Below are positions 10,143-29,539 of a stretch of DNA of 64,000 nucleotides, piece after piece. The translations under genes were made by a program, and so were the position numbers. The stretch comes from a phage. Each line of letters starts with the position of its first letter. Within the stretch, counting starts at the first letter, position 1. The DNA is taken from the sequence record PZ534511.1. One strand, 5' to 3'. The notes beneath the pieces are model-generated. The model ran no database searches. It was not told the origin of the DNA and saw only the letters and a list, made by a program, of their open reading frames with translations.

Positions 10143-12215
10143 TTATGAGAAGTCTGGAGGGACAACATCTTCTACATACCCTTTCAGAGCAACCTGCCCC
10201 ATATGAAGCACGGTAGAATCTCTGGCTGTAACAGTGATGCTGTCAGACATTACTTGCGGGTATGCCCACACATACTGTTTTACCTCAGGGTATCTATACT
10301 CTATGGTTGCCATGTTTCCGCAGATACATCTCCATAAAAATTCTTGGTAATTCCTGGTTGGGTCGTAGCCATATACCGGAGCAAGCTCTTTACTAGGAAC
10401 GAACCCTGCAAGGTATTGTATTTCAGACGGTTGCCAACCTAACTTAACGATAGGTATGTTTACAGACTCTTTTGCCTTTTCAATACCTCCCTGCATCACC
10501 CAATCGTAGCACTCGGTGCAGAAGAAATCAAGAGCACCTGCTTCTTTTTTATATTGGTCAGCAAGGTTCAGCTTTTGCGTAAGCTCTGTTTCCATAATGG
10601 TTGGGAAAAACAGCAGAGCTGTCATCTGAGCTGATGCAGCGTGTGCCTTTATTGCCTTTGAAATGGCCGCAATACGAGCGCCAAGCTTACCACGACAAAA
10701 TGCTACATACTTGTCGTAAACACCGCCAGTTTTAGGATCGTCAATAGTCCCAATATCTAATGCATACTCACCTGTCTCATCATAAAACGCCTGCTTTGTA
10801 GGGTAATCATAAATACAAGGTCTACGAGTATCGGTATTGTACCACCACCACGGTTCACCAACCTGCATAATCACTGGCAGGTTGTTTCTCATAGCGGCTG
10901 ATGCAAAATTCTTAAATACTGCAGTAAGGAAATTCATACCCTCTTCAATGGTTGGAGACAGGAGGTAGCTACAGGGTGTATACCCTGTTTTAGCGTAGTT
11001 ATCGTTCCAGTCTCTTTGGGTCCATTCCAACGGGCAGGCATCGCTGAAAAGCTCAAAACTTACAGATTGCATAACGTCGAAGTTATGTCGTTTGGCATTG
11101 TACATAAAATCATCATGCCATTTATAAGCTGCAGCGTTTAGCGCCCCTGTTCTGTTTATAGACCATTGGGTTCCTGACCATGTGTAGTCATAATAATGAC
11201 TCATACCAACATAATGGTTTATGGTTCCGGTATAGCCCAGACGCTTGATATTGTTCAACACCCTTAAAGGAGATACGTTCCACATATCGTCATATGCGGT
11301 GCAGATCCCAACGTCGTGCTCTTTAACCTGAATATTGTTAAGTTGCATCATTTTCCAGCCTGTGTCTGGCTGGAGCAGATCTAGGCGCAACTCACACTCT
11401 ACATTTTCCGTTCTCGGGTCTGTGCTATTACTTACCCAGTCTTTAGGCATAAGCGGTATTAAAATCCTTCTCACCTGTCGAGGATCAACACCCATCATGT
11501 TGTTGTTCTGATCCATCCCGACGCAGTCCTCGAAATCAATATGAATCTCTGCAACATTCTTATCCTCTGAGATGCTGACAGCATATTGAGCTAAAGGAAC
11601 ATAGATGATTGTGCCATCAACAAGGTCTACAGTCATAATCATCTTTTCAGGGGTGGAGAAGTTGCTGGCATTGGTTATTGACATTCTGAACCAAAGCTTG
11701 GTGTTTCTCATCTCATAGTGATCATCAAACCCAATACCGAAATGGTCATACTTGTCAACTGTTTCCCAAATGCACCCAGCCATACCTCCATATGTTCTTG
11801 ACACTAAACGGTTAATACAACAGTTGTTATCTGCAACAATACAGGTACTTTCAGTCTGCTGAGTAGTTGTAACCCAATACCTTGGGTGAAACATTCTCTC
11901 CTCAACAGTATCCCAAGATATCCTGTCAAGATTCTCATCTGAAACTATTGTACATTTCGCCCTTTGTGTTCCAATCATCACCCCTTGAGATTTTGATGAA
12001 AACTCCATAAAGAAGCTTCTTGGCAACCTGTTGGGTAATTTGTCAACAATTTCCACTGGGATCTCAATACTGGTTGCCCCAATTGGGATAGTTACATCAC
12101 CCTCAACATGATTATAATCCCTACCAGGAACGGCAGTATCCTGAACTGTGCGGTAATGAAACCGTGCAGCCATTGTAGAGTAATCACGGTAAGGTTTAAA
12201 AATAGCTGTTGCCAT
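10143..12215 (-). CDS. tail/baseplate structural protein (690 aa)
   Basis: ORF track; position between baseplate and fiber genes; Trp/Tyr-rich, no enzymatic motif recognised. Confidence 0.35.
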   Translation of the reverse strand: MATAIFKPYRDYSTMAARFHYRTVQDTAVPGRDYNHVEGDVTIPIGATSIEIPVEIVDKLPNRLPRSFFMEFSSKSQGVMIGTQRAKCTIVSDENLDRISWDTVEERMFHPRYWVTTTQQTESTCIVADNNCCINRLVSRTYGGMAGCIWETVDKYDHFGIGFDDHYEMRNTKLWFRMSITNASNFSTPEKMIMTVDLVDGTIIYVPLAQYAVSISEDKNVAEIHIDFEDCVGMDQNNNMMGVDPRQVRRILIPLMPKDWVSNSTDPRTENVECELRLDLLQPDTGWKMMQLNNIQVKEHDVGICTAYDDMWNVSPLRVLNNIKRLGYTGTINHYVGMSHYYDYTWSGTQWSINRTGALNAAAYKWHDDFMYNAKRHNFDVMQSVSFELFSDACPLEWTQRDWNDNYAKTGYTPCSYLLSPTIEEGMNFLTAVFKNFASAAMRNNLPVIMQVGEPWWWYNTDTRRPCIYDYPTKQAFYDETGEYALDIGTIDDPKTGGVYDKYVAFCRGKLGARIAAISKAIKAHAASAQMTALLFFPTIMETELTQKLNLADQYKKEAGALDFFCTECYDWVMQGGIEKAKESVNIPIVKLGWQPSEIQYLAGFVPSKELAPVYGYDPTRNYQEFLWRCICGNMATIEYRYPEVKQYVWAYPQVMSDSITVTARDSTVLHMGQVALKGYVEDVVPPDFS

Positions 12216-14508: not shown

Positions 14509-17500
14509 TTAGTCGTGAGACTCGTTCCAAGGTCCCTGGAAGCTAGAGTTTGAACGACTTACTATCACAGTAGGACAGGATATTGTAACACCTGTTATAG
14601 CTGAGGTGGACCAGCGTGTGTAAATTTCAACAATAATGTCTATGGTCTGTTCACCCAGCCCTGTTATCCCGACTGCACACATACCATCGTTGTCGTTACC
14701 ATACTTCTTGCCAGCGAGCAACTGGTGCCCCGCTATCCACACATTCAACTGGGAGCCTCCTAGAGTTCCGTTAAGCTTAAAGAAGAATGTTACGTTCTTA
14801 CCTTGTCCTTGAACGTTATCCACGTATCTCCATCTCCAACGGCAAACCTGCTGCTGAGAGTTGTATACTGGAGGACAGTCACCGTAGGTCTTGTGTGCAA
14901 CTATTGCACCTTCGAACTGGTTAGCACGAATAACAGAAGCCTCTACACGCCCACGGAAGGTACCTCCGGTTGCATCTATGGTGCCCCTAAAGCTACCGTT
15001 ATTGGCATAAACATCCCCACGGAAGGTACCACTGGTGGCGTTAACTGCCCCTGTGAAGTTACCAGAACTGGCGTTGATGTTGCCTTTCACCCATACATCC
15101 ATAAATTGGGCGTGCCCGTTCTTGTTAATATACCAACCGTATTTATGGTACCCGTTGCCATCGTAGTTGTTTGACGAAATTTCTTGTGCGATCTTGGCAG
15201 AAGAGATCGTGCCATTCTCTATAAAAGCGTCTTTCAAGAACGCTTGGTTGTTCTTGATTGCGAAAGCAAGGGTTGCTGTTCCATTTCCGGGGTTGTATAC
15301 CGCAAAGTTGTTTGCACTAACCATGAAGTAGGATTGAACTTGGCCCCCAGACCCTTCCATCCCCAACTGGATACCTGCAACATATTTATTCCCTGCGGAG
15401 TCTACCTGTATTTTTGTGCCCCATTGAGCATTTACTTTACCCTCTAAGTCGGTTACAGCCTTAGATGTTGTAGCTACTGCAGCCCTAAGCTCAGATACAT
15501 CCCCAACATCATTGATGATCTCCTGCTTAGCGACAGCAAGTTCTTGACGAATAGCTGACGCTGTGCCGTTGATAAGGTCCACAGTGGCTTTGTTGGTATC
15601 GGAAATTGTAGCATCCAGCGCTGTTTTTGTGGAGGTCAGTTTTCCATCCAAAGCATCAATCGCTTGCTTGTTGGTAGAGATCTCCCCACGTGCAGAAGTT
15701 ATTTGCTCTGACAGTGCAGATGTTTTCTGATTCAACAAGTCAGTGGTGGCCTTGTTGGTATTGGCAATCAAGGTGTTGAGGTCAGTTTTTGCGGTAGTTA
15801 TCTTGCCGTCAAGGGTGGTATAGTTTTTAGATACCGTCGCGTTTGTCTGACTAATCTTTTGATCCAGAGTTTCAGATGTCCTGTTCAAAAGATCTACAGT
15901 GGCTTGGTTAGTGCTCAAGATGCTTGCGTCAAGTTCTGTTCTCTGAGTATTGATCTTACCATCCAGAGTTTTATCTCCGGCTAAATACCCGCTCTCAACT
16001 CCCCCTATCTGCTCTACCAGCTCACCTTTGGCGGCAACCAATTTCTCATCTAAAGCCTCTGTCTTTTTGTTCAGAAGATCAGTAGTTGCTTTATTGGTTG
16101 TCTCGATTAGAGATGCCAGTCTGCCACTTTCAGTGTTCAGATCGTTGGTGAATTTGTTCTGTGCAGCAACAAGTTTCCTATCCAGCGCTGTAATGTTACC
16201 ATTGACATCTTCAAACTTCTGAGTTGTTTCTGTAACTACCGCACCTATTCTGTCCCCAAGTTGCTGGAACGCTTCATCTACCCTACCATCCATGTACCTG
16301 TTAAGTTCTGTGACACGATTTTCAACCTCTTCAATAGAGGAATCCAAAGTGCTCATCAACTCTTTATAAGTTTCTGTCTTTTTGAATTCAGCATCTATCT
16401 GAGGCATCAAATCCTCAATAGAGGTGTAGCAGCGTGCAGCGCATTCTACAAACTGAGAACTACCAAAAGCGTTTGTGGTTCGAATATACCAATAATAAAC
16501 CTTATCGTTCTGCAGACCTTCAGATGTCCAAGTTGAACCAACACCCATACGGGTGGCGTTTGAAGTAACGGTTGCATCACTGGTGTCTGGCAACCTTGTC
16601 ATACCGGATGTCCAAAAGTCATACTGGGTGCTAACACTTGCTAAATCCCTACTATGCGGAATCAAGGTGATAGCAAAGTATCCTTGCTTAACCTCTACAG
16701 AAACCGGAGCTTCAGGTGCCTGAATGTTAAACTCACAATACGCTTCTGGAGATACACCACCTTTATAAGATGTTGCAACCACGGTTGCTGTGTATGACCC
16801 TTTGGTCAAACCTTCTACTCTGACAAACTGCTCAACTGTCTGTGCTGTCCAAACAATCTCTCCGTTCTTTCTTACCTGCACAATATTTTGAGCGTAAGTC
16901 CCAACGTTGTCCCAAGCCAAAACACCGTGAGTTACTTCCCCAGCTTGGAGAACGGAGTATCTGAAGTTTTGCGGTTGAGCTACACCAGATGGAGATATCG
17001 GAATATCTACATTGCCAGAATCCGGAAGTTGCCCTGTGGCATCATTCCACTCTTTAGCATCTTGACGAAGTTTTACCTTGACACCACCCTTTTTGGTAAA
17101 CTCCCATTCAAGAACCCTCATTTCTTGGCCCACTATACCTATACTTGGAAGGTTCATTGTAACGTAACGACCAGGTTTAAATTTAAAACCTCGCATATTG
17201 CAGGTGACTTCAATAATCCTGCCAGCTCTCGCGCGTCTTAAGAAGATTGCAGAAACACGCTGAGCTTGATAAGGGCTGGTAACAAAGCGATAGTCTATAT
17301 CGATTATCTTTCTTTCTCCATCCTTCTCTATCCACTCTGGGACAAACACTGATGGAAAATCTGTTTCAGAATACCCTTTGGTCGGACTAGTGAATCTGCC
17401 GGTTATTGTGTTGGATCTTTTGTCAAATGAGGCTTCCGGGTAGATCTTGACCTCACCACAGACACAATCCTCACTCAGTGTCATTGTTGCCGGGCCATAG

Positions 17501-18348
17501 TATGCACCAACCAGCAAACCATACTTACCAGCTACATAGCTGAGATCTGCGCCACAAGCTTTCAGCATTTCTGCCATAATACTTGCTGGGGCCTCATCCA
17601 TATCGAACTCGCCATTAATTGTGTAACGACGCTCGCTGGTTCCGTCTGCGTTTCTTACAGCCTCGTCGCATATGTTGGCAGCCTCCTTGAAGGACTCCCA
17701 GTTGATGGTTTCGTCAGGACATTTAAGGTACGTTCTTAAATAGTCCAGAATCACCAAGGCAGCGTTATTGGTATACACCTCTTTACTAGTGCGAGGATCA
17801 TAGCATTTTTTACCAACCTTGACGAGTGTGACGTTTGGCAACCCAAAAGGAAACTTGTTAGGGTCAAACCTAAAGCTGACCCGTAGCCAACTGATCCCTC
17901 TACCTATCATGTCCGGTGACCACGATGGGCAGTGTGTGCCCATGAAAGGATCAGAGGTTTTTCTATCGTTATGTAGCTCCCACGATACCAAATCCCCATA
18001 CGAAGAAATAGGATTACCGTCGATAAGTATATCTTCTATACCTTCCAGAGGGTGATTGGCAAGAACAATAGCACAATGAAGGGTTCTGTCCCTGTCCTGC
18101 TCCAAAAACGCAAGCAATCCAGATGTACGTGTCTTCCCATACACTACAGAGCAAGGTGCAGCAGAAGATCTGAGAAGCTTTTGTCTATCTTGCTGACTTC
18201 TGTAAGATTTGTTTCCCTCGAAAATCTTATCCAGAGTTCTGGTGGTAACAGTGTTCAGGCTGTCAGCCAGAGCTGCCTTGGATGCGTTCCAGTCATAACT
18301 TGAAGATCTTGCAGAAGCAACGATGTTATCAATCATTGCAATTGGCAT
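14509..18348 (-). CDS. central tail fiber / tip attachment protein (lambda J-like, 1279 aa)
   Basis: Recalled similarity to lambda J over several blocks (e.g. [25 protein letters not shown] ~ lambda [63 protein letters not shown] ~ lambda [36 protein letters not shown]); internal coiled-coil repeats. Confidence 0.7.
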   Translation of the reverse strand: [1279 protein letters not shown]

Positions 18349-18785
18349 TAATACCTCCAGACATCAACAACGATAGAATCTTTCATGTCGAACATAAAGA
18401 CCCCTTTATCACCTTTAGCCCAAATCTGGTTGTTCCAGAACACACCAGCGGTGAGCCCGTTCAGACCTTCGAAAATGACAATATCTCCACGCTGAGCCTG
18501 TTTAGGAGTATCCAGCCGAGTCATAAAGAGATCAAAAATAGTAGGCAGGTGTGTGGTTTTGAAACGAAGCATGCACCATCTTTTGCTTTCCAACTCTGTT
18601 TTATACGTTCCTTCAAAGTTAGAAAGAAAATCTGTTCCGTATTGGGCATCAACACACTTAGCCGCAAAGGTGCAACAATCGTGGAATCCCCATTCAAAAG
18701 GTATGGTGGCCTCTTCGTCAAACACTTTCCACAATCTTTCTTGCCAATCCACTAAACGAGGATGTGTGCTCATTAAACCTCCCAA
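18348..18785 (-). CDS. tail tip assembly protein (possible NlpC/P60-like, gpK/I-like)
   Basis: 145 aa immediately upstream of J-like gene; conserved-looking HDCCTF Cys motif. Confidence 0.3.
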   Translation of the reverse strand: MGGLMSTHPRLVDWQERLWKVFDEEATIPFEWGFHDCCTFAAKCVDAQYGTDFLSNFEGTYKTELESKRWCMLRFKTTHLPTIFDLFMTRLDTPKQAQRGDIVIFEGLNGLTAGVFWNNQIWAKGDKGVFMFDMKDSIVVDVWRY

Positions 18786-19339
18786 ATGATCGGGCGGCTC
18801 GCCACCTGATCCACATATTTAAAAAATCTGTCGTTATCGTTTCTTGAGCTGTGGCTTTCCTCCGTGTACCGATAAGGAAAACCTCTTAACCAGCTGTTGA
18901 AGATGGAGGAGATGGATATGGACAAAGCACTATTCTCGCCTGTCTGAATAGCCATATCTGTTATAAGGCCGTCAAACAAGCCATTAGTTGTAACAGGCAG
19001 ACCATTCTCCATAGCGGTAATGTACAACGTGGCACGACAACCAGAATACTCCGTCTTCAGCAGATCACCCACATACTTAGGATCAAACCCGTTCAATGTC
19101 GCTACCACAGATCCGAAGTTGGTGGCATCTTTCTCAGACACAGCAGTTAACGTTGCTGATCCACCTATCCCTATAAAATGTTGCCCCTCAATTACTACAA
19201 CACCAGTGCCTGAGCACACCCTGACAGTTCCTGTCGGTAGCTCCAGCTTTGCAGCAATTAAGATCTCAACACCATCAAGCTCCAGCTTTTCAAGAAATAA
19301 ATTATCTAATGGCGCTCTGATCATCTTAGAAATCCTCAA
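18773..19339 (-). CDS. tail tip protein (188 aa)
   Basis: ORF track; overlaps neighbours by 13-14 nt in operon with J-like gene. Confidence 0.3.
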   Translation of the reverse strand: MRISKMIRAPLDNLFLEKLELDGVEILIAAKLELPTGTVRVCSGTGVVVIEGQHFIGIGGSATLTAVSEKDATNFGSVVATLNGFDPKYVGDLLKTEYSGCRATLYITAMENGLPVTTNGLFDGLITDMAIQTGENSALSISISSIFNSWLRGFPYRYTEESHSSRNDNDRFFKYVDQVASRPIIWEV

Positions 19340-19916
19340 AGAAGTTGATAACTATATTATCACCTTTTTGCATAGCATCGACTTTTTGCTTAATTTTATA
19401 AATATCTCTGATATGAAACCTACCCTTCGGAGATTGAGTTATTATCTTCATGGTGTCCCCTGCGGCAATAGGCTTTCTAAGTCTTGGAGATATGCCTATA
19501 ACAGCAGACCCAACACCATCACTACGCACTGGAGCTGTTACCACTTTCAATTCATCATTGACAGATATTTTATCCCCAGCTCTAGCTATGTCTCTGTTTG
19601 GCTCCCATCCGACCGTCTTCAAAAAATCGTCGTTACCAGTAGGCCCAAGGGCGATTGGCTCATTAGTTGTTACTGAGTGACCGTAAGTTTTAATAAGAAA
19701 GATGTTTCCATCTTTATACACCTGATCAACAAAGCTCTTAAGCTCTAGCAACTGTGACTCGCTGATATTGGAGACCGTCAAAGTGCCTTTCCAGTTAGGT
19801 GTGGCATAGGTTACTTTTTGCGTTTTACCTGTAAATGGACTTTTAAACGTAACAATATCTGCCAGCAGCTCCAATCTAATATCTGGAAGATATCTAGGCC
19901 TTTCCCATAAAAACAT
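19326..19916 (-). CDS. minor tail protein (196 aa)
   Basis: ORF track; position analogous to lambda M/L upstream of K/I/J. Confidence 0.3.
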   Translation of the reverse strand: MFLWERPRYLPDIRLELLADIVTFKSPFTGKTQKVTYATPNWKGTLTVSNISESQLLELKSFVDQVYKDGNIFLIKTYGHSVTTNEPIALGPTGNDDFLKTVGWEPNRDIARAGDKISVNDELKVVTAPVRSDGVGSAVIGISPRLRKPIAAGDTMKIITQSPKGRFHIRDIYKIKQKVDAMQKGDNIVINFFEDF

Positions 19917-19980
19917 TGTGCCTCCGGGTTAAACAATCATGATAGCTATTTTACCAGATTTTAAGTTAATACGCAATACA

Positions 19981-20010
19981 AACAAAAAGCCCCCGCCGAA
20001 GCGAGGGCAA
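19981..20010 (-). terminator. rho-independent terminator after long tail fiber gene
   Basis: gcccccgc-cgaa-gcgagggc hairpin (19991-20010), U-run on minus RNA from 19981-19990. Confidence 0.55.
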
Positions 20011-20015
20011 AACAG

Positions 20016-23000
20016 TTACTTCAGTTTCTCTTGCAACCCAGTAACAACCTCTGTCAATTTTTTAACCTGCTCCTCAAGGGCGGTTATTTTATCATCTTGT
20101 TCTCTGCAAACCTGAACAAGCAATCCTGTTACAGCCGCATAGTCAACATTATAGAATCTTTCCTCGGTCATCAGAGGAATACCATCTTGAGTAGGACCAG
20201 GAACCTCTTTCCTTTTCACGAAAGAACCAACCGCTTCAGGCAATGCTTCCATAACCTCTTGAGCAATTACCCCCGCGTGAGGCATACCATTCTCTTTTAG
20301 AGTGTAGGTATAGCCTTTCATCTTACGGATAGCTTCCAACGCGTTAGGAATAACCTCTATGTTATCCTTCAGGTCACGGTCAGAGCTCTGGCTGACAGCG
20401 GTGCACTCTACTACGCCGTTGACAGCAAAGTACCTTGACTTGGCCTCATCTGTCTTAGCACCACAATGCCATACCCAACTGGCAGATGTAGCGTTGTCGT
20501 TTATCTGAAACTCAAGCACGTTCTTCCTGTCTGCGCCATTACCCCAGTAGTACATTCTGCCTGTATTAGAAGGCATGTTGGAAGTGTTGGTAACATCGGT
20601 CCCACCACCTGTATGTATCATGAACTCTGGGTCAAGATTGGAACCTGCGGTTTTAAGAGTAATTCCCTTACCACCAAGCTGCTGCCAAGGTCCCCATGTG
20701 AAAACACTACCTATTGTTGTTCCATAACGCAGGAATTTTTCCCCAAGATATGATATATACTCCTGTACGCAACTCTCTGGAACATTGGCGTAGTTCCTGT
20801 ACACGATAAGCGTACCTGCCCGGGAGCATGGGTAGTTTCTATCAGGTGTGGCTTGAGCATTGGCCTCCTGATGATAAAAACCTTCCCTATCCCCTTTGTA
20901 GTCGTTAAGGTCATTAATCCCCAGACCTTGCCCTCTGTGTTGTATGACCTTGTTCCACGCTCTATGGTTACCACCCTCGATAGATCTGGTGTATAACTGA
21001 TCAAGGCGTCCAGCCATTTGGAAAGCATAGTTTCCAGAGAACGCCACAGACAGTCCACCAACAACCATCGAGCCTTCTGGTCCGTTAACATTACCCGCCA
21101 TTATTTTTGACGGGTTATTAGACCCAAACTGGTTGTTCCAGTCTCCACCAGTATGACATACAAAACCACCAGGGGCCGAGAAAGTACCGTCTTTGTTGAA
21201 ATTGTAGAATCTGTGAGCTGTGCCCACAACATCGCGAACAATAACTTGACCAGCTTCTGGGGTAGATCTGAACTCTGCCTGACCTTTGAGGCCAGCACCA
21301 TTACCGCATTTAGAGGTAAACGTACCGTTAGTTAGATCCTCTGTTCCATCTGATGCACACTGGAATCCTGCATTAGAGAATAACGCCTTTCTAGGGCTGC
21401 CATAGCACAAATAGTCAATACCGTCAGCCCATAGTTCGACTTTAGGCATGTTCATTTTGCTCATCACCGCATAGCGTTCAGCAGTGCCTATATAGTGCCA
21501 CTGTGTGCCGCCGCCAGTGTAGAACCCAGAGGTACCTTTGAAGTCAACAATAGGTCTGGTGTTGGTATTGTTATCTCCAAGAACAGCAAGATTCAAATCT
21601 GCTGACTGGAGAGGCGCAACAAACTTAACACCGTCCTGATTGTCTGTTACAGCTCCGACCTGGTAATCTTGCTCTCTGGTAAACACTTCTACAACATTTC
21701 TACTTGCGTATACGCTGACAGGGAAAGCACGAGCCTCTACATAGAAAGCAACATACTCTTGTTTACCCCTTGTTGGAGCAACCATCCCAAGAAGTGCTTT
21801 TTCATTCTGGTAGAAATTTACTACCCCGTAGAAAGAGTCTCCTCTGTCTGTCCAGCCCCCAGTTCTGTAATGGCACTGCAGAGTAGCGCAGTTCATAGGG
21901 TCACTGCCGGATGACGATCTGGTAACTATGGTAATATCAGTACCAGTTGCTGGAGCATAGTACGGATCTGTTCTAACGATGATTGGGTAGTATTTCCCAT
22001 CTTCCATCCCTGCAGTTCTTGGCAGTGTTAAGAAATCTTTGACACCCGCAGCTATAGGAACTTTGAACAGATTCTGAGCATCTGCCAGGGTTGTAGCCCC
22101 AGTGCCACCTGCGGCGTGAGATAAAGGTTCCCACTTGGCCTTCCGGTTGTTATAAACACCCCATTCCAGAGTGCCGTTACCGGACTCATCCATCCCACCA
22201 TCCCAGACGACCATCTTGGCGGCTTTCTTGGACCCCCAGAAGCCTCTTTCTGCTCCTGAACTACGAATCCACTCTCCAAGTCCCCAGTTTGTCAGCTGAC
22301 CAGTAAGATCCCCAACCTGCATGTATTTAGGGCAGTCTAACACGCCGTCTTCGCGTAAACCTAAATATCTATGAGTTTCAGATCCTTTTGCACCTTTGTG
22401 CAGGTGGATTGTCAACCAAGCCTTATTGTCGTTTCTTACCTCAGAATAGATCCTATATCCATGCTCAAGGACACCGTCAGTATTATATTTATCTCCATGG
22501 AGAATACCTGAGGCCGATTTAACATCTCCCGAGTATTGAGCTAAGTAAAGGTGCCCGAAGGCTGGCGAGTTGTTTTTACCAAGGCCAATATGAGATCTGA
22601 AGGTATCATCGTTACGAGGTCTGACCATCGGCTGCCATGCAGTCCACTGATTTGTGTTGGCCTGATAGGTTCTCAAATACCAAACATCTACGTTAGAGAA
22701 TGGATAGTATTCCTGACGACAACCTGTACCGCCGTTAGCATTGTTCTGCCAAACAATCAAGTGACCAGCACCAGAACCTGCAGGGTAACCATTTGCCTCA
22801 GTTGCATTAGCAGTCATCGGCTGGTAGTATATACCATCCTGATTACCAGTCAAATTATTGATATTGAAATTTGCATCAAGCGCAGCACGCTGCTTATAGA
22901 AAGCACCGATATTGATACGGACTCCAGCGGCATCTCTAGCCCCTGTGCCGCCTTGCTCTATAGCAAGAGGTTGCCACGAAGCTGTTTGTTGGTTCCACAT

Positions 23001-23816
23001 ACCCCAACGGCCTGTTGCATCAAGCTGCAAGTACCCTGCCGTATTTAAATCATCTCCAGCACGGATAACTGTTCTTGTTGGGTTATTTGTCTCTAGGCGT
23101 TTAAATTCATCACGAAGTGCTATTCTTTTTGTTGTTGCTACACCGTTGGTTACTGCAATGGTGTACATAGCTCCGGTGGTAGCGCCACGGAAAATACCAT
23201 CAACAGTTGTAGTATCACGACGAGATACCACACCGTTCAGAAATTTTTCACCAGCTGCTACAGAAGGGTAGTTGGTAGTTCTTCCCTCTTCAATAACTGC
23301 AGGGCCAACAAAGTTATCAAGGTGAATAACATCGCCTACAGTGTGCACTGTACCAAAATCTACACGCTGTGCAAGTGCTTTAGCATCGTTAGCTGTCTGA
23401 ACAGTAACATCCATTACATCCTGGACAGACTGCCCTTCGGCTGTCATGATCATAGATGCGCCAATGGTAGATTCCAGCTCCTCCCTTAGGGACGGGTCAG
23501 TATATACCATCCATGCAGCGTCAGTAATCCCACCATCAGCGTACGGTGAAGACAGTGCAGGAACAGTGTGTGGAAATTCGCCTTTCCAACGCAGGTAGAG
23601 GTCTTCCTCTTCGAAGTAGGCAAAATCCATTGGGCCGTTTAACTTACCACCTTCCTTAAAGGAGATTACATGAGAAACAGTCCCATCCACATGGACAACA
23701 TCGCCAATTTTTACACGACGAGTCAGGTCTGGTTGTTGAACAACCAGGTAATCATCCTCTGTCACTGCGGTAGTGGCAGGAAGAGATTCAATTCTGACAA
23801 CTTTAATATCAGCCAT
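20016..23816 (-). CDS. long tail fiber with C-terminal intramolecular chaperone (peptidase S74-like) domain
   Basis: 1266 aa; C-terminus SSDRDLKDNIEVIPNALEAIRKMKGYTYTLKENGMPHAGVIAQEV...coiled coil matches autoproteolytic chaperone of endosialidase/T5 L-shaped fibre type; N-terminal domain shared with 26451..27119. Confidence 0.6.
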   Translation of the reverse strand: MADIKVVRIESLPATTAVTEDDYLVVQQPDLTRRVKIGDVVHVDGTVSHVISFKEGGKLNGPMDFAYFEEEDLYLRWKGEFPHTVPALSSPYADGGITDAAWMVYTDPSLREELESTIGASMIMTAEGQSVQDVMDVTVQTANDAKALAQRVDFGTVHTVGDVIHLDNFVGPAVIEEGRTTNYPSVAAGEKFLNGVVSRRDTTTVDGIFRGATTGAMYTIAVTNGVATTKRIALRDEFKRLETNNPTRTVIRAGDDLNTAGYLQLDATGRWGMWNQQTASWQPLAIEQGGTGARDAAGVRINIGAFYKQRAALDANFNINNLTGNQDGIYYQPMTANATEANGYPAGSGAGHLIVWQNNANGGTGCRQEYYPFSNVDVWYLRTYQANTNQWTAWQPMVRPRNDDTFRSHIGLGKNNSPAFGHLYLAQYSGDVKSASGILHGDKYNTDGVLEHGYRIYSEVRNDNKAWLTIHLHKGAKGSETHRYLGLREDGVLDCPKYMQVGDLTGQLTNWGLGEWIRSSGAERGFWGSKKAAKMVVWDGGMDESGNGTLEWGVYNNRKAKWEPLSHAAGGTGATTLADAQNLFKVPIAAGVKDFLTLPRTAGMEDGKYYPIIVRTDPYYAPATGTDITIVTRSSSGSDPMNCATLQCHYRTGGWTDRGDSFYGVVNFYQNEKALLGMVAPTRGKQEYVAFYVEARAFPVSVYASRNVVEVFTREQDYQVGAVTDNQDGVKFVAPLQSADLNLAVLGDNNTNTRPIVDFKGTSGFYTGGGTQWHYIGTAERYAVMSKMNMPKVELWADGIDYLCYGSPRKALFSNAGFQCASDGTEDLTNGTFTSKCGNGAGLKGQAEFRSTPEAGQVIVRDVVGTAHRFYNFNKDGTFSAPGGFVCHTGGDWNNQFGSNNPSKIMAGNVNGPEGSMVVGGLSVAFSGNYAFQMAGRLDQLYTRSIEGGNHRAWNKVIQHRGQGLGINDLNDYKGDREGFYHQEANAQATPDRNYPCSRAGTLIVYRNYANVPESCVQEYISYLGEKFLRYGTTIGSVFTWGPWQQLGGKGITLKTAGSNLDPEFMIHTGGGTDVTNTSNMPSNTGRMYYWGNGADRKNVLEFQINDNATSASWVWHCGAKTDEAKSRYFAVNGVVECTAVSQSSDRDLKDNIEVIPNALEAIRKMKGYTYTLKENGMPHAGVIAQEVMEALPEAVGSFVKRKEVPGPTQDGIPLMTEERFYNVDYAAVTGLLVQVCREQDDKITALEEQVKKLTEVVTGLQEKLK

Positions 23817-23851
23817 TCTTTCTCCTGAAAGGGGGCAAACAGCCCCCTATG

Positions 23852-26449
23852 TTAAAGGTACAATCCACGGTATTGAGCATAAAGACCCAGACCGCGAAGG
23901 ATTTCGCCAGAGTGATAGCCAACCGGATCAGAAACTGCCCAGCAGCCGTTTAAAATATTATCCCCATTAATGAAGTGGTGCTTTTGCAGTAGCTTCACAC
24001 AGGCTTCTACAACAATATCTATTTGAGGTATTGTCTCTGAATACCCGCACAGACCTAGCCAGCAGCAACCTGCAAGCCATTCACCTACCACCCACATCCT
24101 GTCCCCTCTGTCTTGATAAGAGTATCCCCCAGAGGTGTTAAAGTCTGTAGGCAGATTTCCTGAATGAGATGACTGGAATCTGTTGAGGAACCATGCCCAT
24201 TTCTGGCAGAACAGGAACAGTCTTTCATCAACAGGTTCTTTATGTTTCTTGAGCTCATATATTGTGCGGCACGCAGCAACAAAAGATCTTGACTGGAGCT
24301 TAGAGTTATCTACCATCTCCCACCAACCAGTCAACCCTTCATTGCCTCTCTGCCATACATAACGTGAGGCAACTGGACCCTCTGTCCTAAATGTATTATT
24401 ATACCAGACTTGAGCGTCATACAGAAAGCCTATTGTATTTGACAATCTATGGCGATCTATGTTTTCTGCACCCATGCAGTAGACTGCTGGGTATTGCATG
24501 CCAGGGTAGGGCCAATTTGGCTTTTCCTCTAAGAGATAGTTTTCCTTATCTATCACCTTTCCGGCAGGGAACACACCCGGTGTGTGCCTGTATGCACCTT
24601 GCTTGTAGTTTCTGACATAGCAATCGCCAACCTTAGCGGTTGATTCTGTCTTGCTTGCCATCCACACGCTAAACCAGATTAGATAAGCATCCCTATCTGC
24701 AATATAGAATTGCGGCAGCGTGTTGACGCAATACAGATCAAACAAGCCATTACCTATCTGCCTGTCGCTTAGACTGAAATCTACAGAGGTTAGTCCCTTA
24801 GGATTAGCAAAGAAAGGTTTAATCTCTTCTTCGGTGTGATGAGGTTGTGTCGGATCTAGTTTGAAATCTCCTAGAGTAAGAGTTTCTGTTATCCATTGTC
24901 CATTGGTGGCATATAGATCAGCATACCATAACCACCTGTCTTTGTCAAGAAATTTGACCCTTACCATCTCATCATCTGATCGATAAGTTACTGAGTTTAA
25001 AGAAATCTCTCTTCCAAAATTGAAAGTTACTTTACCTCTTGCTATATTACAACGGGTGAAGTTGTCAGAGTGGTTGTAAATGTCGGTATCATACTGCATA
25101 CTAACACTAGCACCACCGCTTACGGCAATGTTTTCCTCTTTAGGTAAGAGATACGGATTACCGTCTTTACCAACCACCTCTACGAAATCGGTAACCTTGG
25201 CAACTATTTCTGTTACCTCTGCCCTTCCAAAAGGAACCCCTATCCTGTACTGTTTTTTGTTATTGTTGCCATCATTAAGGATGAAATGTGGCTGGAACAG
25301 AACCCCCTCTCCTCCGAAATTCATAACAATTTCAGCATCTCTGCCTATTTTGTATGTAGTCCCTTTTTGGATTATTTCGCAAGGCTGGCGTGCGTTCATT
25401 CTAAAATTGATATACCCGTCACTGTCCCTGCTCATGACAGGAACTGTTCCTGCAACAAGACAAGTACCATCTGTAAACGGTGCCTTAATCAACGTGGTCT
25501 TTCTAAACAATTTGTCGTAGGCGTTTATATCACTGAAATTAAGCAGTTTGTTGTAAGACTGTTCAAACGCGGTGTAATACTTTTCCTCACCTGTCAAGGT
25601 GTAGAGTTGATAACAAGCGTCACACCACATTTCTTCCCCGTCCAACTCTGGGGCCTGATTATCTGCAACCACGTTTATAGGATTTACAATTACAGGGGAT
25701 CCTGCAGGTATCACCGATCCACCCTGCTCCTGAGGTAATCTTACACAATAGGTCACCTTGTGGCTGCCTGTAACACCCTTATCTTGTAATTGGATTGTGC
25801 CGAACTCTACAGACGTATGACCACTGTCGGCTATGCTACCGTTAGCCCAATAGCGGTTACCATCCCATGCTATGTACCACTCAACCCACCAACTTAATCC
25901 GGATGTTGTCCAATCTGGGTTAGCATCTGTGCCACCGTAAACATCAGAGTCTACAGTGTTTCTTCCTAACACACCGTTATACGCTTGGAATGCCTTGTCC
26001 AGGTATTCCCCCCATGTCGGAGATCCAGCTGGGATTTTTCCTCTACCGTTGGTAAAAGACACCACCACATCTTTAAACCCACCGTGTGATGGAACCCCAT
26101 CTGTGGATAGAGGGTAGTGGGACAATCTTTGCATTTTACTTTCTACGGCATATGCACCCAGAAGATGACTATTGTAAGCTTCCCAAGCATCTTTTGCCCT
26201 ATCCAGATAGAAATCGCTTTTCGATGCCCTGTATGCTTCAATGTATCCCAGAATCAACACAGCTTGGGACTCATGCATTGCCCAATCGTTATTTATCTTA
26301 TTACCTGCCCACCCTGCAGCTATAAGACCATCAGGGTTTACTAGCTTATTTTGTGTAGGTGTGTTGGTAATACCTGTGTTGTTATCGAGGCACTTCCTGT
26401 GCCCCTCAATCATCTGAAATACGTTATCAATGTTGTGTTGAATACGCAT
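23852..26449 (-). CDS. tailspike/tail-associated protein, possible glycan-hydrolase fold (865 aa)
   Basis: ORF track; Trp/Tyr/Asp-rich sequence; sits between two fibre genes; function inferred only. Confidence 0.35.
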   Translation of the reverse strand: MRIQHNIDNVFQMIEGHRKCLDNNTGITNTPTQNKLVNPDGLIAAGWAGNKINNDWAMHESQAVLILGYIEAYRASKSDFYLDRAKDAWEAYNSHLLGAYAVESKMQRLSHYPLSTDGVPSHGGFKDVVVSFTNGRGKIPAGSPTWGEYLDKAFQAYNGVLGRNTVDSDVYGGTDANPDWTTSGLSWWVEWYIAWDGNRYWANGSIADSGHTSVEFGTIQLQDKGVTGSHKVTYCVRLPQEQGGSVIPAGSPVIVNPINVVADNQAPELDGEEMWCDACYQLYTLTGEEKYYTAFEQSYNKLLNFSDINAYDKLFRKTTLIKAPFTDGTCLVAGTVPVMSRDSDGYINFRMNARQPCEIIQKGTTYKIGRDAEIVMNFGGEGVLFQPHFILNDGNNNKKQYRIGVPFGRAEVTEIVAKVTDFVEVVGKDGNPYLLPKEENIAVSGGASVSMQYDTDIYNHSDNFTRCNIARGKVTFNFGREISLNSVTYRSDDEMVRVKFLDKDRWLWYADLYATNGQWITETLTLGDFKLDPTQPHHTEEEIKPFFANPKGLTSVDFSLSDRQIGNGLFDLYCVNTLPQFYIADRDAYLIWFSVWMASKTESTAKVGDCYVRNYKQGAYRHTPGVFPAGKVIDKENYLLEEKPNWPYPGMQYPAVYCMGAENIDRHRLSNTIGFLYDAQVWYNNTFRTEGPVASRYVWQRGNEGLTGWWEMVDNSKLQSRSFVAACRTIYELKKHKEPVDERLFLFCQKWAWFLNRFQSSHSGNLPTDFNTSGGYSYQDRGDRMWVVGEWLAGCCWLGLCGYSETIPQIDIVVEACVKLLQKHHFINGDNILNGCWAVSDPVGYHSGEILRGLGLYAQYRGLYL

Positions 26450-26450
26450 C

Positions 26451-27119
26451 TTAGATAGCTCCTGCGATAATCAGTGCCCCGTACCAAGTTAACCCGTTGT
26501 CGTAGGTTTCCAACTTGAAAATATCTGTTGCACCAGCTGTAAATGTTAGGATAGGATCTCTTCCGTAGGACCATTTAACATTACCAGGCCAATAGACTTT
26601 GTTGCCGCCAGAGGTCTGAGTAATGCATACGGTTATAGTCCTCGCCACCCCTTCAAGACCTTCTGTTTGATTTTCAAAAGAGATTGTGGTATTTGAAGTT
26701 AGTCGAACCTTAAAGGTATCCGCAACTTCAAGATCCATATCAAGCTGACCACCGATAGATCCGTAATCAACTATTCTGCCAGAAGAAGTTGCAGCAAGCT
26801 CACCAAAAACAGACCAGGCATTTGCAGACACACCCCCAGCACCCTCTACAGTGGAGTCTGGGAGGATTATTTTAGGATAATCCCCGTTCCACGTGTAGTA
26901 GCGCTTAGTTTCTGGATCATAAGCAAAGTCCTTCTTGCTCTTAAGATAACCACCCTCTGTGAAATAGACTATCTTAGTGATGCTAAGATCGTTGACAACA
27001 TCGTCAATCTTAGCCTTTCTTGTCCCATCAGTCTGGTTGACAACCAAGAAGTCATCACTCAGGACTGTTTCTGCATCTTCAAGATCTGGAATTGGTATTG
27101 TAGGATAAGCTACAGCCAT
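26451..27119 (-). CDS. short tail fiber/adaptor protein (222 aa)
   Basis: N-terminus (LEDAETVLSDDFLVVNQTDGTRKAKIDDVV...FTEGGYLKSKKDFAYDPETKRYYTWNGDYP) parallels N-terminus of 20016..23816. Confidence 0.4.
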   Translation of the reverse strand: MAVAYPTIPIPDLEDAETVLSDDFLVVNQTDGTRKAKIDDVVNDLSITKIVYFTEGGYLKSKKDFAYDPETKRYYTWNGDYPKIILPDSTVEGAGGVSANAWSVFGELAATSSGRIVDYGSIGGQLDMDLEVADTFKVRLTSNTTISFENQTEGLEGVARTITVCITQTSGGNKVYWPGNVKWSYGRDPILTFTAGATDIFKLETYDNGLTWYGALIIAGAI

Positions 27120-27128
27120 GATTTCTCC

Positions 27129-27845
27129 TTAGTTAACATCAATAGCACGACCAGACTGGTTGGCAATAGCCTCATCATTGGAGGTAGCAATAACACCAGA
27201 GTATTCGCGCTCATCTGGAGCAAGCGTCCAGGTATTGCGGTTAATGGTTTGTTCTGCCTCAGTCATCAGCAGATCTTTATCCTGAGTCAACAGAGAGCCT
27301 ACAGGGATCGGGTTTTCCATCTCAGGACCAGCATACTGGTTCCACCATGTGGCATCTCCGGTTCTAGGCAATCTGAAGTTGATCAGATAGTACAGTTTAT
27401 TAGCCCACTTAATCCAACCCTCATCATCACAGAGGGAGGTTGTCCCAGAATCAGGCTGTGGGTAGGTGAACTGATCAAGACCTACAAAAGCCAGCCTTAC
27501 AATCTCGTTCTCTTTGGTAACAACCTCAAAGAACGCTTGGTATGTTCTCGATCTTCTATCCATGGTGGATTGGAAGTTTATGATGTTTAGCACATCCGGC
27601 TCTTGTCTTGCCACTTCCATAATCTTGTTATCAAGAACAGTCTTCATGACCTTCTTGCTGAGAAAGTCCATATAAGGGAAGCCAAACAGCTCGTCAAAGT
27701 ACCAGCTCCCCTTCCACGTATTAAATCTCATCCACAAGCGCTGGCGCAGACTTACCTGGTTTGAATCTATCAACTCAAGACCTTTGTCTATCGCCAAATC
27801 GCCTGTCTGTGGGTCCATCAATATATCACTATAAAGCGTAGCCAT
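27129..27845 (-). CDS. baseplate protein (238 aa)
   Basis: ORF track; operon position between spike-like protein and fibres. Confidence 0.3.
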   Translation of the reverse strand: MATLYSDILMDPQTGDLAIDKGLELIDSNQVSLRQRLWMRFNTWKGSWYFDELFGFPYMDFLSKKVMKTVLDNKIMEVARQEPDVLNIINFQSTMDRRSRTYQAFFEVVTKENEIVRLAFVGLDQFTYPQPDSGTTSLCDDEGWIKWANKLYYLINFRLPRTGDATWWNQYAGPEMENPIPVGSLLTQDKDLLMTEAEQTINRNTWTLAPDEREYSGVIATSNDEAIANQSGRAIDVN

Positions 27846-27857
27846 GAAAGCCCTCTA

Positions 27858-28535
27858 TTAGTGCGGTCCACTTGTCTCGCCATCAGGGCAAGAGTGGGTA
27901 TGACCTTTATATTCTGCATAGAATGAATCCAAATCCACGCCAGCAGCAGTTATAATTCTACCAGATGGGTCTATTGTGGCACCATTCATTCTGATATTTC
28001 CATCCACAGCAGCTCGCAAATTGGCAGCACCGTTAGTGAAAGAAAACTCCCCGCTGCTGTCGCACCGTAATGTTCCACCCGGTGTCTGAAGCTCAAAATC
28101 GCCAGAAGGTGTCAGTTTAAAATAAACCCTATCATTCCATAACTCTACGTTATCAGGATCGATCTGTAAAGCGTTTGAGTCTGAATGAACGGAGGTGATT
28201 GCCCACCCTGGAAACAGGCCGTGAGTTTGTTGATCGTCGTTATTGTTTTCATTCCTCTCTGAAAACTGCAATCCTACAACATCTCCGGCCTTAATAGGAA
28301 GTGTTAACCTTGCCTTTCCGCTGTTTGCAGACATCACCTGAATTGGAACGTCATAGATAAGGGGGTATCTCTCCACATCTCCGTCATCAAACGTGGTTTC
28401 AGCTATTGGCTGCACAGATGCAGAAGGGATACTGTAGTCTACACTGACAACTCTGGCCCTGATACTGGTGTGGTAGTCCCTCATTATTTTTTCTATGAAG
28501 GATCTTACAGCAGCATCTTTCCTATTTATTGCCAT
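27858..28535 (-). CDS. baseplate hub/spike-like protein (225 aa)
   Basis: ORF track; position downstream of tape measure; weak recollection of gpV/gp45-like N-terminus. Confidence 0.3.
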   Translation of the reverse strand: MAINRKDAAVRSFIEKIMRDYHTSIRARVVSVDYSIPSASVQPIAETTFDDGDVERYPLIYDVPIQVMSANSGKARLTLPIKAGDVVGLQFSERNENNNDDQQTHGLFPGWAITSVHSDSNALQIDPDNVELWNDRVYFKLTPSGDFELQTPGGTLRCDSSGEFSFTNGAANLRAAVDGNIRMNGATIDPSGRIITAAGVDLDSFYAEYKGHTHSCPDGETSGPH

Positions 28536-29539
28536 TATACCTCCTCAGTTTTGTCAACAACTCCACCCACTGTTTCCCCAAGGCCAAGCTCTGTAGTGTA
28601 ATCACCTCCTTCTATGGTGCCCTTATGATGCACCGTGATCACCTTATAGAATCCTGTATATTGCTTGCTTTTAAGATAAATAGTGGACTCTGGGAGGATA
28701 GCTCCGTTAAGGCATGTGGTTACAGTAAGGCCAACATCCTCTCTCGGGTTTTTCTTTTTCTTTTTAGATGTCGAACCGCCTTTGGCAGCAGCTTTAGCTT
28801 TTCGTTTTTTAGCAGGTTCTGGGTTTTTAGGGGTAGGCGATCCGTGCATCCCAGACTCTGCACTTATTTCAAACACAGAGTCTTTGAACCTTTTTCCAAC
28901 CTTGGTCCAATACAAAGCTCCATCCTGAACGCTAAATGTGGAGTTGGTCAGCCTTGCAAACCTGCGGAGGTTCTCTGCAGTGTTTCCAGAGAAAGCCATA
29001 GAGTATTGCAAAGTCTGGTTTCCAAAACCCACAACCCTACCTTTTGGCAAGTTCATATCCTTCAGCAGGTCATTAAGCACAGAGTTCAGAGGTGTACCTT
29101 TCTGATAAGATCTTGTGCTTTGGCACTTAATAATGTTCTCAGTACCATCTCCAAAGATGAACTTAGTTTTTCTGGTCGGACCTTCCCATCTGTCTTCAAC
29201 AAACTCTACAGTTCCGGAGAATATTAACTGGTTCTCATCATCATATCCAGCTTCAAACATAACTGCAAGGGCATCAGCCTGATGCATATCCAGATAGTTA
29301 ACTGTATCGTCAGACAGGTTGTAAACTGTCACATAACCTTTGTTTGGCTCTTTGGTATTATCCTTTTGTATGTCAAACTCTATATTGGCAGCACCAGTGT
29401 CAGAGCTAACTTCATAAACTCCGGAATCACTCTCCCCTTTCTTTTCAACAGATTTTGGGATATTGGTTTTTGATTTACCGCCATGTTCTACAGGACGACC
29501 AAACAATAATCGCCATGTTCTACGTCTGTACTCCGCCAT
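28535..29539 (-). CDS. tail/baseplate protein with Lys-rich segment (334 aa)
   Basis: ORF track; KKRKAKAAAKGGSTSKKKKK low-complexity tract. Confidence 0.3.
   Translation of the reverse strand: MAEYRRRTWRLLFGRPVEHGGKSKTNIPKSVEKKGESDSGVYEVSSDTGAANIEFDIQKDNTKEPNKGYVTVYNLSDDTVNYLDMHQADALAVMFEAGYDDENQLIFSGTVEFVEDRWEGPTRKTKFIFGDGTENIIKCQSTRSYQKGTPLNSVLNDLLKDMNLPKGRVVGFGNQTLQYSMAFSGNTAENLRRFARLTNSTFSVQDGALYWTKVGKRFKDSVFEISAESGMHGSPTPKNPEPAKKRKAKAAAKGGSTSKKKKKNPREDVGLTVTTCLNGAILPESTIYLKSKQYTGFYKVITVHHKGTIEGGDYTTELGLGETVGGVVDKTEEV

Follow-up and report, generated by a model that had tools for sequence, protein, structure and literature searches.

A shared N-terminal module, an S74-ending mosaic fibre and a putative adaptor–cargo gene pair in the adsorption block of an rV5-like phage

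Three consecutive minus-strand genes for proteins of 222, 865 and 1266 amino acids (aa) lie in the 64,000-nucleotide (nt) stretch of phage DNA analysed here (sequence record PZ534511.1, hereafter the window; coordinates in Table 1). We consider it fairly probable that they form one block of a multi-fibre adsorption apparatus, in which the 222-aa and 1266-aa proteins share an anchor, the 1266-aa protein is a mosaic fibre ending in an S74 chaperone, and the 222-aa protein is an adaptor that carries the 865-aa protein as its cargo. The shared N-terminal module (N-module) and the S74 ending are largely known: for rV5, the chaperone domain of gp41 and the tailspike-like N-terminus of gp43 were described in 2013 (PMC3606486). 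The new point is the adaptor–cargo pair, which is suggested by comparative genomics and would belong to the known class of adaptor-mounted receptor-binding proteins.

Along its whole length, region 19000–28600 of the window shows 95–97% identity with over 100 sequenced Vequintavirus genomes, including rV5, FV3, slur16 and the BASEL phages HeinrichReichert and WalterGehring, and judging from this sequence identity the window is that of a Vequintavirus, an rV5-like Escherichia coli myovirus. The 222-aa, 865-aa and 1266-aa proteins are equivalent to rV5 gp43, gp42 and gp41, respectively (84–100% protein identity), and their genes are arranged identically behind the sheath initiator.

The C-terminal domain of the 222-aa protein (aa 111–222, hereafter 222-C) belongs to no Pfam family, and its homologues form the C-termini of genes labelled as tail fibres in many unrelated phages, with the conserved signature Q-x-x-G-x-N-K-V-x-W-P...K-W and D-x-G-x-T-W-x-G. 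In every one of the 19 distinct loci, the gene for a homologue of the 865-aa protein (865-like gene) is immediately preceded by a gene ending in 222-C, the gap between the two genes ranging from −8 to +14 nt, with overlapping stop and start codons at some loci (the 19 loci comprise the window and the fetched loci L001–L021, without L013 and with L006/L007 counted once). When five unrelated phages were picked by 222-C matches alone (T7-like Aghbyvirus ISAO8, Rosemountvirus SPLA2, Kolesnikvirus SeKF_13, Crifsvirus ECO319P1, and jumbo Asteriusvirus G17), the next gene was 865-like in all five (857–1453 bits); similarly, when six further loci were picked by 865-like matches alone (Aeromonas PhiAC505, Serratia Kaonashi, Vibrio G1, Escherichia PJNS034, Erwinia M7, and jumbo Seoulvirus SPFM3), a 222-C partner was found upstream in all six. 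Starting from distant 865-like proteins (26–28% identity) on two metagenomic myovirus contigs and in a Burkholderia prophage, the upstream gene again always ended in 222-C. A hidden Markov model (HMM) of 222-C matched exactly one open reading frame (ORF) per locus in 359 kilobases, always the neighbour of the 865-like gene, and the HMM of the 865-aa protein likewise matched one per locus. Phage-database searches with the two proteins yielded 536 and 525 records, with a near-identical host mix.

These loci span T7-like podoviruses, myoviruses, jumbo phages and the Burkholderia prophage, and the N-termini of the small partners are phage-specific, matching other fibres of their own phage (loci L004 and L005). 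The anchors fused to 222-C are T7 gp17-N, the N-module of Vequintavirinae, other myovirus anchors and a prophage SPRY protein; in three T7-like podovirus partners, the N-terminus is the Pfam domain Phage_T7_tail, i.e., the tail-binding domain of T7 gp17, above threshold. Taking this into account, it seems insufficient to regard the 222-aa protein as a short paralogue of the long fibre, and the neighbour pattern points to an adaptor role. As the anchorless 865-like protein occurs on varied tails and is always preceded by a phage-specific anchor fused to 222-C, this domain would be the docking site for the large protein.

In rV5, gp41, gp42 and gp43 have all been detected in virions (PMC3606486). 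Both cassette partners of phage S144, which is also among the 19 loci, are likewise virion proteins, namely ORF16 (21 kDa) and ORF17 (111 kDa, 25 peptides), the latter being a gp141 homologue according to its GenBank annotation. No description of a 222-C/865-like cassette was found in open-access literature text. Matches of the 222-aa model to the folds of a T4 gp9-like baseplate protein and the Pa223 capsid spike were not relied on, the predicted local distance difference test (pLDDT) score of this model being 55. In the Burkholderia vietnamiensis prophage (L006 6567–7988), the small partner has 473 aa and carries a SPRY domain ahead of the docking domain; there, the pair lies at the prophage edge, near an integrase gene.

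The 865-aa protein belongs to no Pfam or CAZy family and gave no pectate-lyase-type match; its sequence had no match in the PDB, and the family profile found only a 34-residue hairpin there (E = 0.002). The 865-like family comprises 363 clusters at 50% identity, 164 of them with E below 1e-30. Close members are conserved from residue 1, lack an N-terminal anchor, and differ by internal and C-terminal insertions; the possibility that longer relatives represent a fused 222-aa/865-aa version with the shared anchor was ruled out, as they have no such N-terminal copy. Distant 865-like bodies are fused behind lambda gpM/Dit-type domains or stand at the end of a J-like protein, which suggests that the 865-like body is a tail-mounted module and that such fusions are another route to attaching it.

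The AlphaFold2 (AF2) model of the 865-aa protein (pLDDT 70.9, predicted template modelling score 0.60) contains helical hairpins at residues 59–95, 269–306, and 654–860 with β domains between them, as assigned by DSSP, and the fold is predicted to be a six-hairpin (α/α)6 barrel with β-sandwich inserts, split by approximately 300–350 residues of β domains. The word-indexed homologue searches provided four relatives of the 222-aa protein and six of the 865-aa protein, profile included, which restricted the alignment depth for structure prediction. Residues E60, Q62, D270, Q680, R721, and E849 are invariant or nearly so across 56 members at 16–56% identity; all six are located on helices of the barrel, with two at the N-terminal end of their helix. 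E60, D270, and E849 were noted as conserved, with no mapping onto any glycosidase or epimerase family. The model thus suggests a glycosidase-like fold with a conserved pocket, and the protein may be an enzyme. The original prediction, which regarded it as a possible glycan-degrading spike and proposed structure prediction as a check, agrees with the moderately confident model as far as the glycosidase-like fold is concerned; the spike part does not stand, since a β-helix tailspike depolymerase is incompatible with a predicted α/α barrel with β-sandwiches in a protein that has neither an anchor of its own nor a Pfam match. A portion of the β-sandwich insertion (profile positions 471–622) recurs in a separate 502-aa Kolesnikvirus tail protein and in phrog_23426. 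This 502-aa protein is encoded just ahead of the cassette (L005 5749–7257, L010 3991–5499, L019 1550–3058), and in L005 its N-terminal ~150 residues are in common with the small adaptor.

That the 222-aa and 1266-aa proteins open with one and the same conserved stretch had been noticed from the sequence alone, and the proposed pairwise alignment of the N-termini bears this out: BLASTP aligns residues 7–105 of the 1266-aa protein with residues 8–105 of the 222-aa protein (38% identity, 55% positives, E = 3e-18), i.e., the similarity is significant over ~99 residues, and the motifs LVVxQxDxTRxxKIxDVV, FxEGGxL, and DFAY are found in both. A search with each N-terminus and a joint HMM against all six-frame ORFs of the 64-kb window found these two proteins as the only carriers of the module (cross-matches at E ~1e-17 to 1e-18) and no third one. 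The similarity is specific and far beyond chance. In both proteins, PF18668 Tail_spike_N scores above the gathering cutoff of 25 (aa 46–103, 39.2 bits, in the 1266-aa protein; aa 51–105, 41.0 bits, in the 222-aa protein), and the allele of the long fibre in phage EmilHeitz carries this domain as well; PDB sequence matches at aa ~50–160 of the 1266-aa protein are the N-terminal parts of solved tailspikes. The N-terminus of rV5 gp43 has been likened to that of the P22 tailspike (PMC3606486), and N-terminal domains of the Orf210/TSP1 type are seen as anchors that have been reused widely (bioRxiv 10.64898/2026.05.12.724579). By analogy, the shared N-module is likely of the kind regarded by the field as an N-terminal anchor.

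A role of the N-module as a virion anchor is supported by this analogy and also by the fact that it is conserved across three genera, each time at two gene positions. Behind the sheath initiator of Seunavirus 4MG come a 224-aa protein that has the module in full, an 865-like protein of 929 aa, and a 712-aa "colanic acid degrading" protein, in which the module is again complete. AV123, which is phi92-like, has a small protein of 157 aa, the first ~38 module residues being joined directly to the C-terminal domain, and a 731-aa tailspike whose copy of the module contains an insertion. The most conserved stretch at both gene positions and in all three genera is the extreme N-terminus, and as the small AV123 protein retains only the first ~38 residues, the extreme N-terminal peptide would be the conserved core, with the PF18668 domain dispensable. 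Fold matches of the 222-aa N-module to the N-terminal domains of CBA120 and G7C proteins are weak, and the 222-aa model is poor, with the first 46 residues below pLDDT 50; that this segment is unstructured in a monomer model is expected if it folds upon binding, which is a weak argument.

The 1266-aa protein is 84–98% identical in other Vequintavirus genomes. Its residues 1–135 match only Vequintavirinae, Seunavirus, and related large myoviruses, and residues ~170–1261 match, in tblastn searches, side fibres of T5-size siphoviruses (Tequintavirus-size), CAjan/Seurat, and the lambdoid phage mEp460. The last ~180 residues match many S74-ending fibres, as well as many PHROG fibre C-termini. In sister phages, the C-terminal ~220 residues are swapped, so that some share only residues 1–1046. 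The domain shuffling suggested in the original prediction is thus evident here, with a constant anchor joined to a siphovirus-type body and exchanged C-termini. Two knob-like repeats with ~30–37% identity (BLASTP) are located at aa 318–402 (window 22611–22865) and aa 969–1046 (window 20679–20912), and the breakpoint dividing S74-type from lectin-type alleles falls right after the second one; a weak R2-pyocin match covers aa 978–1048. The EmilHeitz gene at the same position encodes a protein that is 93% identical over residues 1–1046 and has past this point a weak concanavalin-A-like match and no S74.

Two Vequintavirus baseplates have been imaged in the RBPseg study, where fibres of class TC12 end in S74 (MaxBurger) or in a lectin-like head (EmilHeitz) (PMC12143355). 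Given the 93% identity to the EmilHeitz fibre, the 1266-aa protein likely belongs to class TC12, this assignment and the RBP_10/RBP_11 identities being matched via the description of the EmilHeitz allele in that study, not via protein identifiers. EmilHeitz also has an extra 110-aa ORF past the long fibre gene (L021 8684–9016), with no Pfam match and no counterpart at window 19917–20015; it might be a separate chaperone or an adhesin replacing the intramolecular chaperone.

At the C-terminus of the 1266-aa protein, the intramolecular-chaperone domain expected from the first reading was recovered as PF13884 Peptidase_S74 (aa 1145–1196, 60.8 bits, cutoff 22), the profile match opening exactly at S1145-D-R-D-L-K1150, with the Lys five residues after the Ser. 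A catalytic Ser followed by Lys five residues later at the domain start is established for the K1F endosialidase and T5 pb1. The PDB match of this C-terminus is the distal subunit of the phage S16 long tail fibre. The assignment of a Peptidase_S74 intramolecular chaperone with the canonical S1145/K1150 dyad is therefore sound at the level of sequence. The C-terminus of rV5 gp41 has likewise been compared to the K1F endosialidase chaperone (PDB 3GW6) (PMC3606486). We infer that the 1266-aa protein cleaves itself; for MaxBurger, whose TC12 fibre bears S74, density for the peptidase domain is absent from the cryo-electron microscopy (cryo-EM) map (PMC12143355).

Combining these observations, we suggest the following arrangement. 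The N-module, consisting of a short N-peptide and a TSP1/Orf210-type β domain, would attach the 222-aa and 1266-aa proteins to the baseplate periphery; as the module is the same in both, the two assemblies would be received by baseplate sockets of one kind, probably equivalent ones. In the 1266-aa protein, this anchor would be joined to a long fibre body of the T5-like siphovirus type, and the S74 chaperone would aid trimer folding and then cut itself off before Ser1145, leaving a mature fibre of 1144 residues. The 222-aa and 865-aa genes would be translated as a coupled pair, the phage-specific N-module of the adaptor plugging into the virion and its conserved C-domain holding the 865-aa protein, which most likely binds or cleaves a surface glycan; it is from comparative genomics that we infer physical contact between the two proteins. 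More tentatively, 222-C and the 865-like protein may constitute an apparently undescribed portable plug-and-socket cassette, available to any phage that fuses its own tail anchor to a docking domain of ~100 residues, and the gp140–gp141 pair might then explain the phi92 fibre II density or that of the arm of the L-shaped fibre I. In the 2026 cryo-EM study of phi92, fibre II is reported to be attached to the L-shaped fibre I at its base and is left unassigned; only fibre-shaped candidates were screened, gp140 included, and gp141 is unmentioned (PMC13450770). A gp140–gp141 complex would thus be a reasonable candidate for the unassigned phi92 fibre density.

Several points weigh against this arrangement. 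In solved tailspikes, the PF18668 domain follows a more N-terminal anchor region, and the true docking element may be the first ~40 residues alone. The cryo-EM support for S74 loss stems from a related phage. The 865-aa model is moderately confident, and Foldseek found no convincing global match for it (template modelling scores 0.1–0.17); this protein also matches no CAZy or Pfam family, and the six-hairpin fold covers non-hydrolytic enzymes too. The poor 222-aa model (pLDDT 55) yields weak fold matches. Finally, gene adjacency with co-varying domains also marks fibre–chaperone pairs, and such pairs classically show a fibre C-terminus that is inherited together with the gene behind it, stop and start codons overlapping; hence, the 865-like protein could be an assembly or maturation factor of the small fibre, akin to the tail-fibre assembly proteins encoded just downstream of fibre genes. 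This explanation is weakened to the point of being very improbable by the size (865–1157 aa) and enzyme-like fold of these proteins, which are unlike those of a chaperone, by the presence of homologues in purified virions (rV5 gp42, PMC3606486, and S144 ORF17 with its 25 peptides), and by the fusion of distant members to structural tail proteins.

Two other explanations are possible, although we regard both as unlikely. The two N-modules may be old paralogues that dock at different sites (the wedge versus another fibre) or compete for six sockets, which would produce mixed virions, their similarity reflecting ancestry and shuffling. The modest identity of 38% agrees with this, as do the presence of both proteins in the same rV5 virions (PMC3606486), the reported attachment of phi92 fibre II to the base of fibre I and not to the wedge (PMC13450770), and the loss of all but the first ~38 module residues from the small protein of the phi92-like phage; on the other hand, the extreme N-terminus is the most conserved stretch at both positions in three genera, as expected for a common binding partner, and the positions do not split into orthologue groups, the N-terminus of the 1266-aa protein matching the small fibre of 4MG with 57 bits and its large spike with 50 bits. 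It is also improbable that the 222-aa protein is an independent short fibre with its C-domain as the receptor-binding tip, the 865-aa protein being attached elsewhere or via a different protein and linked to it only by acting on the same glycan, as a lectin and an enzyme would be. 222-C indeed occupies the distal C-terminal end, the usual place of receptor-binding tips, many records label the small gene as a tail fibre, and the low-confidence 222-aa model matches small glycan-associated β-sandwich domains (StcE, CpaA). However, 865-like proteins never carry a phage-specific anchor, despite being found in podoviruses, myoviruses, jumbo phages and a prophage, and T7-like loci have the pair at the position of the gp17 fibre, the fetched stretch containing no further gene annotated as a fibre; moreover, tips usually vary fast, and the strong 222-C signature in phages of hosts from Vibrio to Burkholderia fits a protein–protein interface better. 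The adaptor–cargo arrangement on a shared anchor is the one we prefer.

Table 1. Features of the three-gene block and its flanks in the window.
Feature	Position	Strand	Remarks
222-aa small fibre, proposed adaptor (rV5 gp43 homologue)	26451..27119	-	ORF; 98–100% identical in many Vequintavirus genomes
222-aa N-terminal shared module (aa 1–110): N-peptide aa ~1–45 and Tail_spike_N aa 51–105	26790..27119	-	
222-aa C-terminal domain (aa 111–222), conserved partner domain of 865-like proteins	26454..26789	-	no Pfam family
865-aa anchorless protein, predicted (α/α)6 barrel with β-sandwich insertions (homologue of rV5 gp42 and phi92 gp141)	23852..26449	-	
865-aa β-sandwich insertion domains (aa ~330–613), predicted	24611..25462	-	DSSP of AF2 model
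1266-aa lateral tail fibre (rV5 gp41 homologue; likely RBPseg class TC12)	20016..23816	-	ORF; full-length phrog_6578 match
1266-aa N-terminal shared module (aa 1–110), including Tail_spike_N aa 46–103	23487..23816	-	
1266-aa shaft and tip (aa ~168–1144), common to side fibres of T5-like and other siphoviruses	20385..23315	-	tblastn
1266-aa C-terminal intramolecular chaperone, Peptidase_S74 (aa 1145–1266)	20019..20384	-	predicted self-cleavage just before Ser1145 (codon 20382–20384)
Strong terminator-like hairpin directly past the 1266-aa gene	19989..20008	-	8-bp stem with 7 GC pairs, then TTTTTGTTTG
35-nt spacer upstream of the 1266-aa gene: GC hairpin (GGGGGCTGTTTGCCCCC) and Shine-Dalgarno sequence	23817..23851	-	sequence read directly

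On the minus strand, genes for the tape measure, tube initiator, plug, hub, central spike, and sheath initiator (27129–27845) precede the 222-aa, 865-aa, and 1266-aa genes, which are followed by a Dit-like/J-like set and then by wedge genes. The total count of terminator-like sites in the region does not exceed the shuffle control, and the hairpin in the spacer upstream of the 1266-aa gene was missed by the terminator scan, has a short T-tract, and is no convincing terminator; because of this, we do not claim that the 1266-aa gene is an insulated cassette. The set directly past the 1266-aa gene (14509–19916, minus strand) is a siphovirus-style tail-tip set within a myovirus baseplate cluster, comprising a Dit-like 196-aa protein, a 188-aa tail protein, a 145-aa DUF6950 protein, and a J-like 1279-aa protein (Phage_Tail_Tip and Ig_J); it is missing at the equivalent position in 4MG and the phi92-like AV123. 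Further on, a 690-aa fibre protein (10143–12215, minus strand) combines the TIM-barrel and N-terminal domains of the non-contractile tail sheath protein with a Calx-beta domain; it corresponds to the BASEL "glycosidase and deacetylase" fibre, which the literature ties to an N4-type glycan receptor. About 20 GenBank records MG0656xx ("Campylobacter phage A116, D#, C12, A140", etc.) are 99–100% identical to these E. coli Vequintavirus genes, so their Campylobacter jejuni labels look like mis-assigned hosts or co-isolated coliphages.

Taken alone, the observation that started this analysis restates known features of a heavily sequenced phage group and changes little. The cassette gives a concrete, testable assignment for two virion proteins in the multi-fibre apparatus of rV5 and phi92, with 222-C as a small docking domain that apparently lets one large glycan-directed protein ride on very different tails. 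If the contact is real, 222-C would offer a ready means of engineering the host range of phages, and the 363 clusters of the 865-like family would represent a large and still unexplored class of phage proteins that bind surface glycans or act on them as enzymes.

In order to place these proteins among known systems, we compared them with published annotations and characterized phages. In the BASEL paper, the 222-aa, 865-aa, and 1266-aa proteins are labelled "sialidase domain protein," "lateral tail fiber protein with glycosidase domains," and "lateral tail fiber protein," respectively, and it is stated to be unclear which genes build which fibre (PMC8594841). Neither the N-terminal paralogy of gp41 and gp43 nor a gp43–gp42 partnership is pointed out in the accessible parts of the rV5 (PMC3606486) and BASEL (PMC8594841) accounts.

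Similarly to the 1266-aa protein, the K1F endosialidase, the L-shaped fibre protein pb1 of T5, and S16 gp37 have a C-terminal PF13884 domain with the Ser–Lys dyad at its start, and the side fibres of T5-like phages have a homologous body; the 1266-aa protein differs from these S74 fibres in its N-terminus, which is an anchor of the Vequintavirinae type and not of the siphovirus or podovirus one, and its cleavage is predicted. CBA120 TSP1–4 and G7C gp63.1/gp66 have PF18668 in common with both N-modules, as seen from sequence matches and weak fold matches, and in their branched complexes several receptor-binding proteins are mounted together on one baseplate, as would be the case here. In contrast to CBA120 and G7C, no T4 gp10-like XD branching domains were detected here, and the PF18668 carriers are a fibre and a 222-aa stub rather than β-helix tailspikes. 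The predicted barrel of the 865-aa protein resembles six-hairpin glycoside hydrolases of families GH8, GH48, GH76, GH88, and GH105 and 2-epimerases of the AGE family, from which it differs in having no family-level sequence membership and in the splitting of the barrel by β domains.

The closest parallel to the proposed 222-aa/865-aa pair is provided by the adaptor and tailspikes of K1-5, K1E, and SP6, where a short virion-anchored protein carries an anchorless enzyme distally (summarized in PMC13450770), and the T7-like loci, in which the small partner has the N-domain of T7 gp17, follow the same podovirus way of adaptor mounting. The putative docking domain 222-C and the putative cargo, a predicted six-hairpin barrel in place of a β-helix or β-propeller trimer, belong to other families than their counterparts in K1-5, K1E, and SP6, and, unlike in those phages, the 222-C/865-like pair is used on the tails of myoviruses, jumbo phages, and a prophage.

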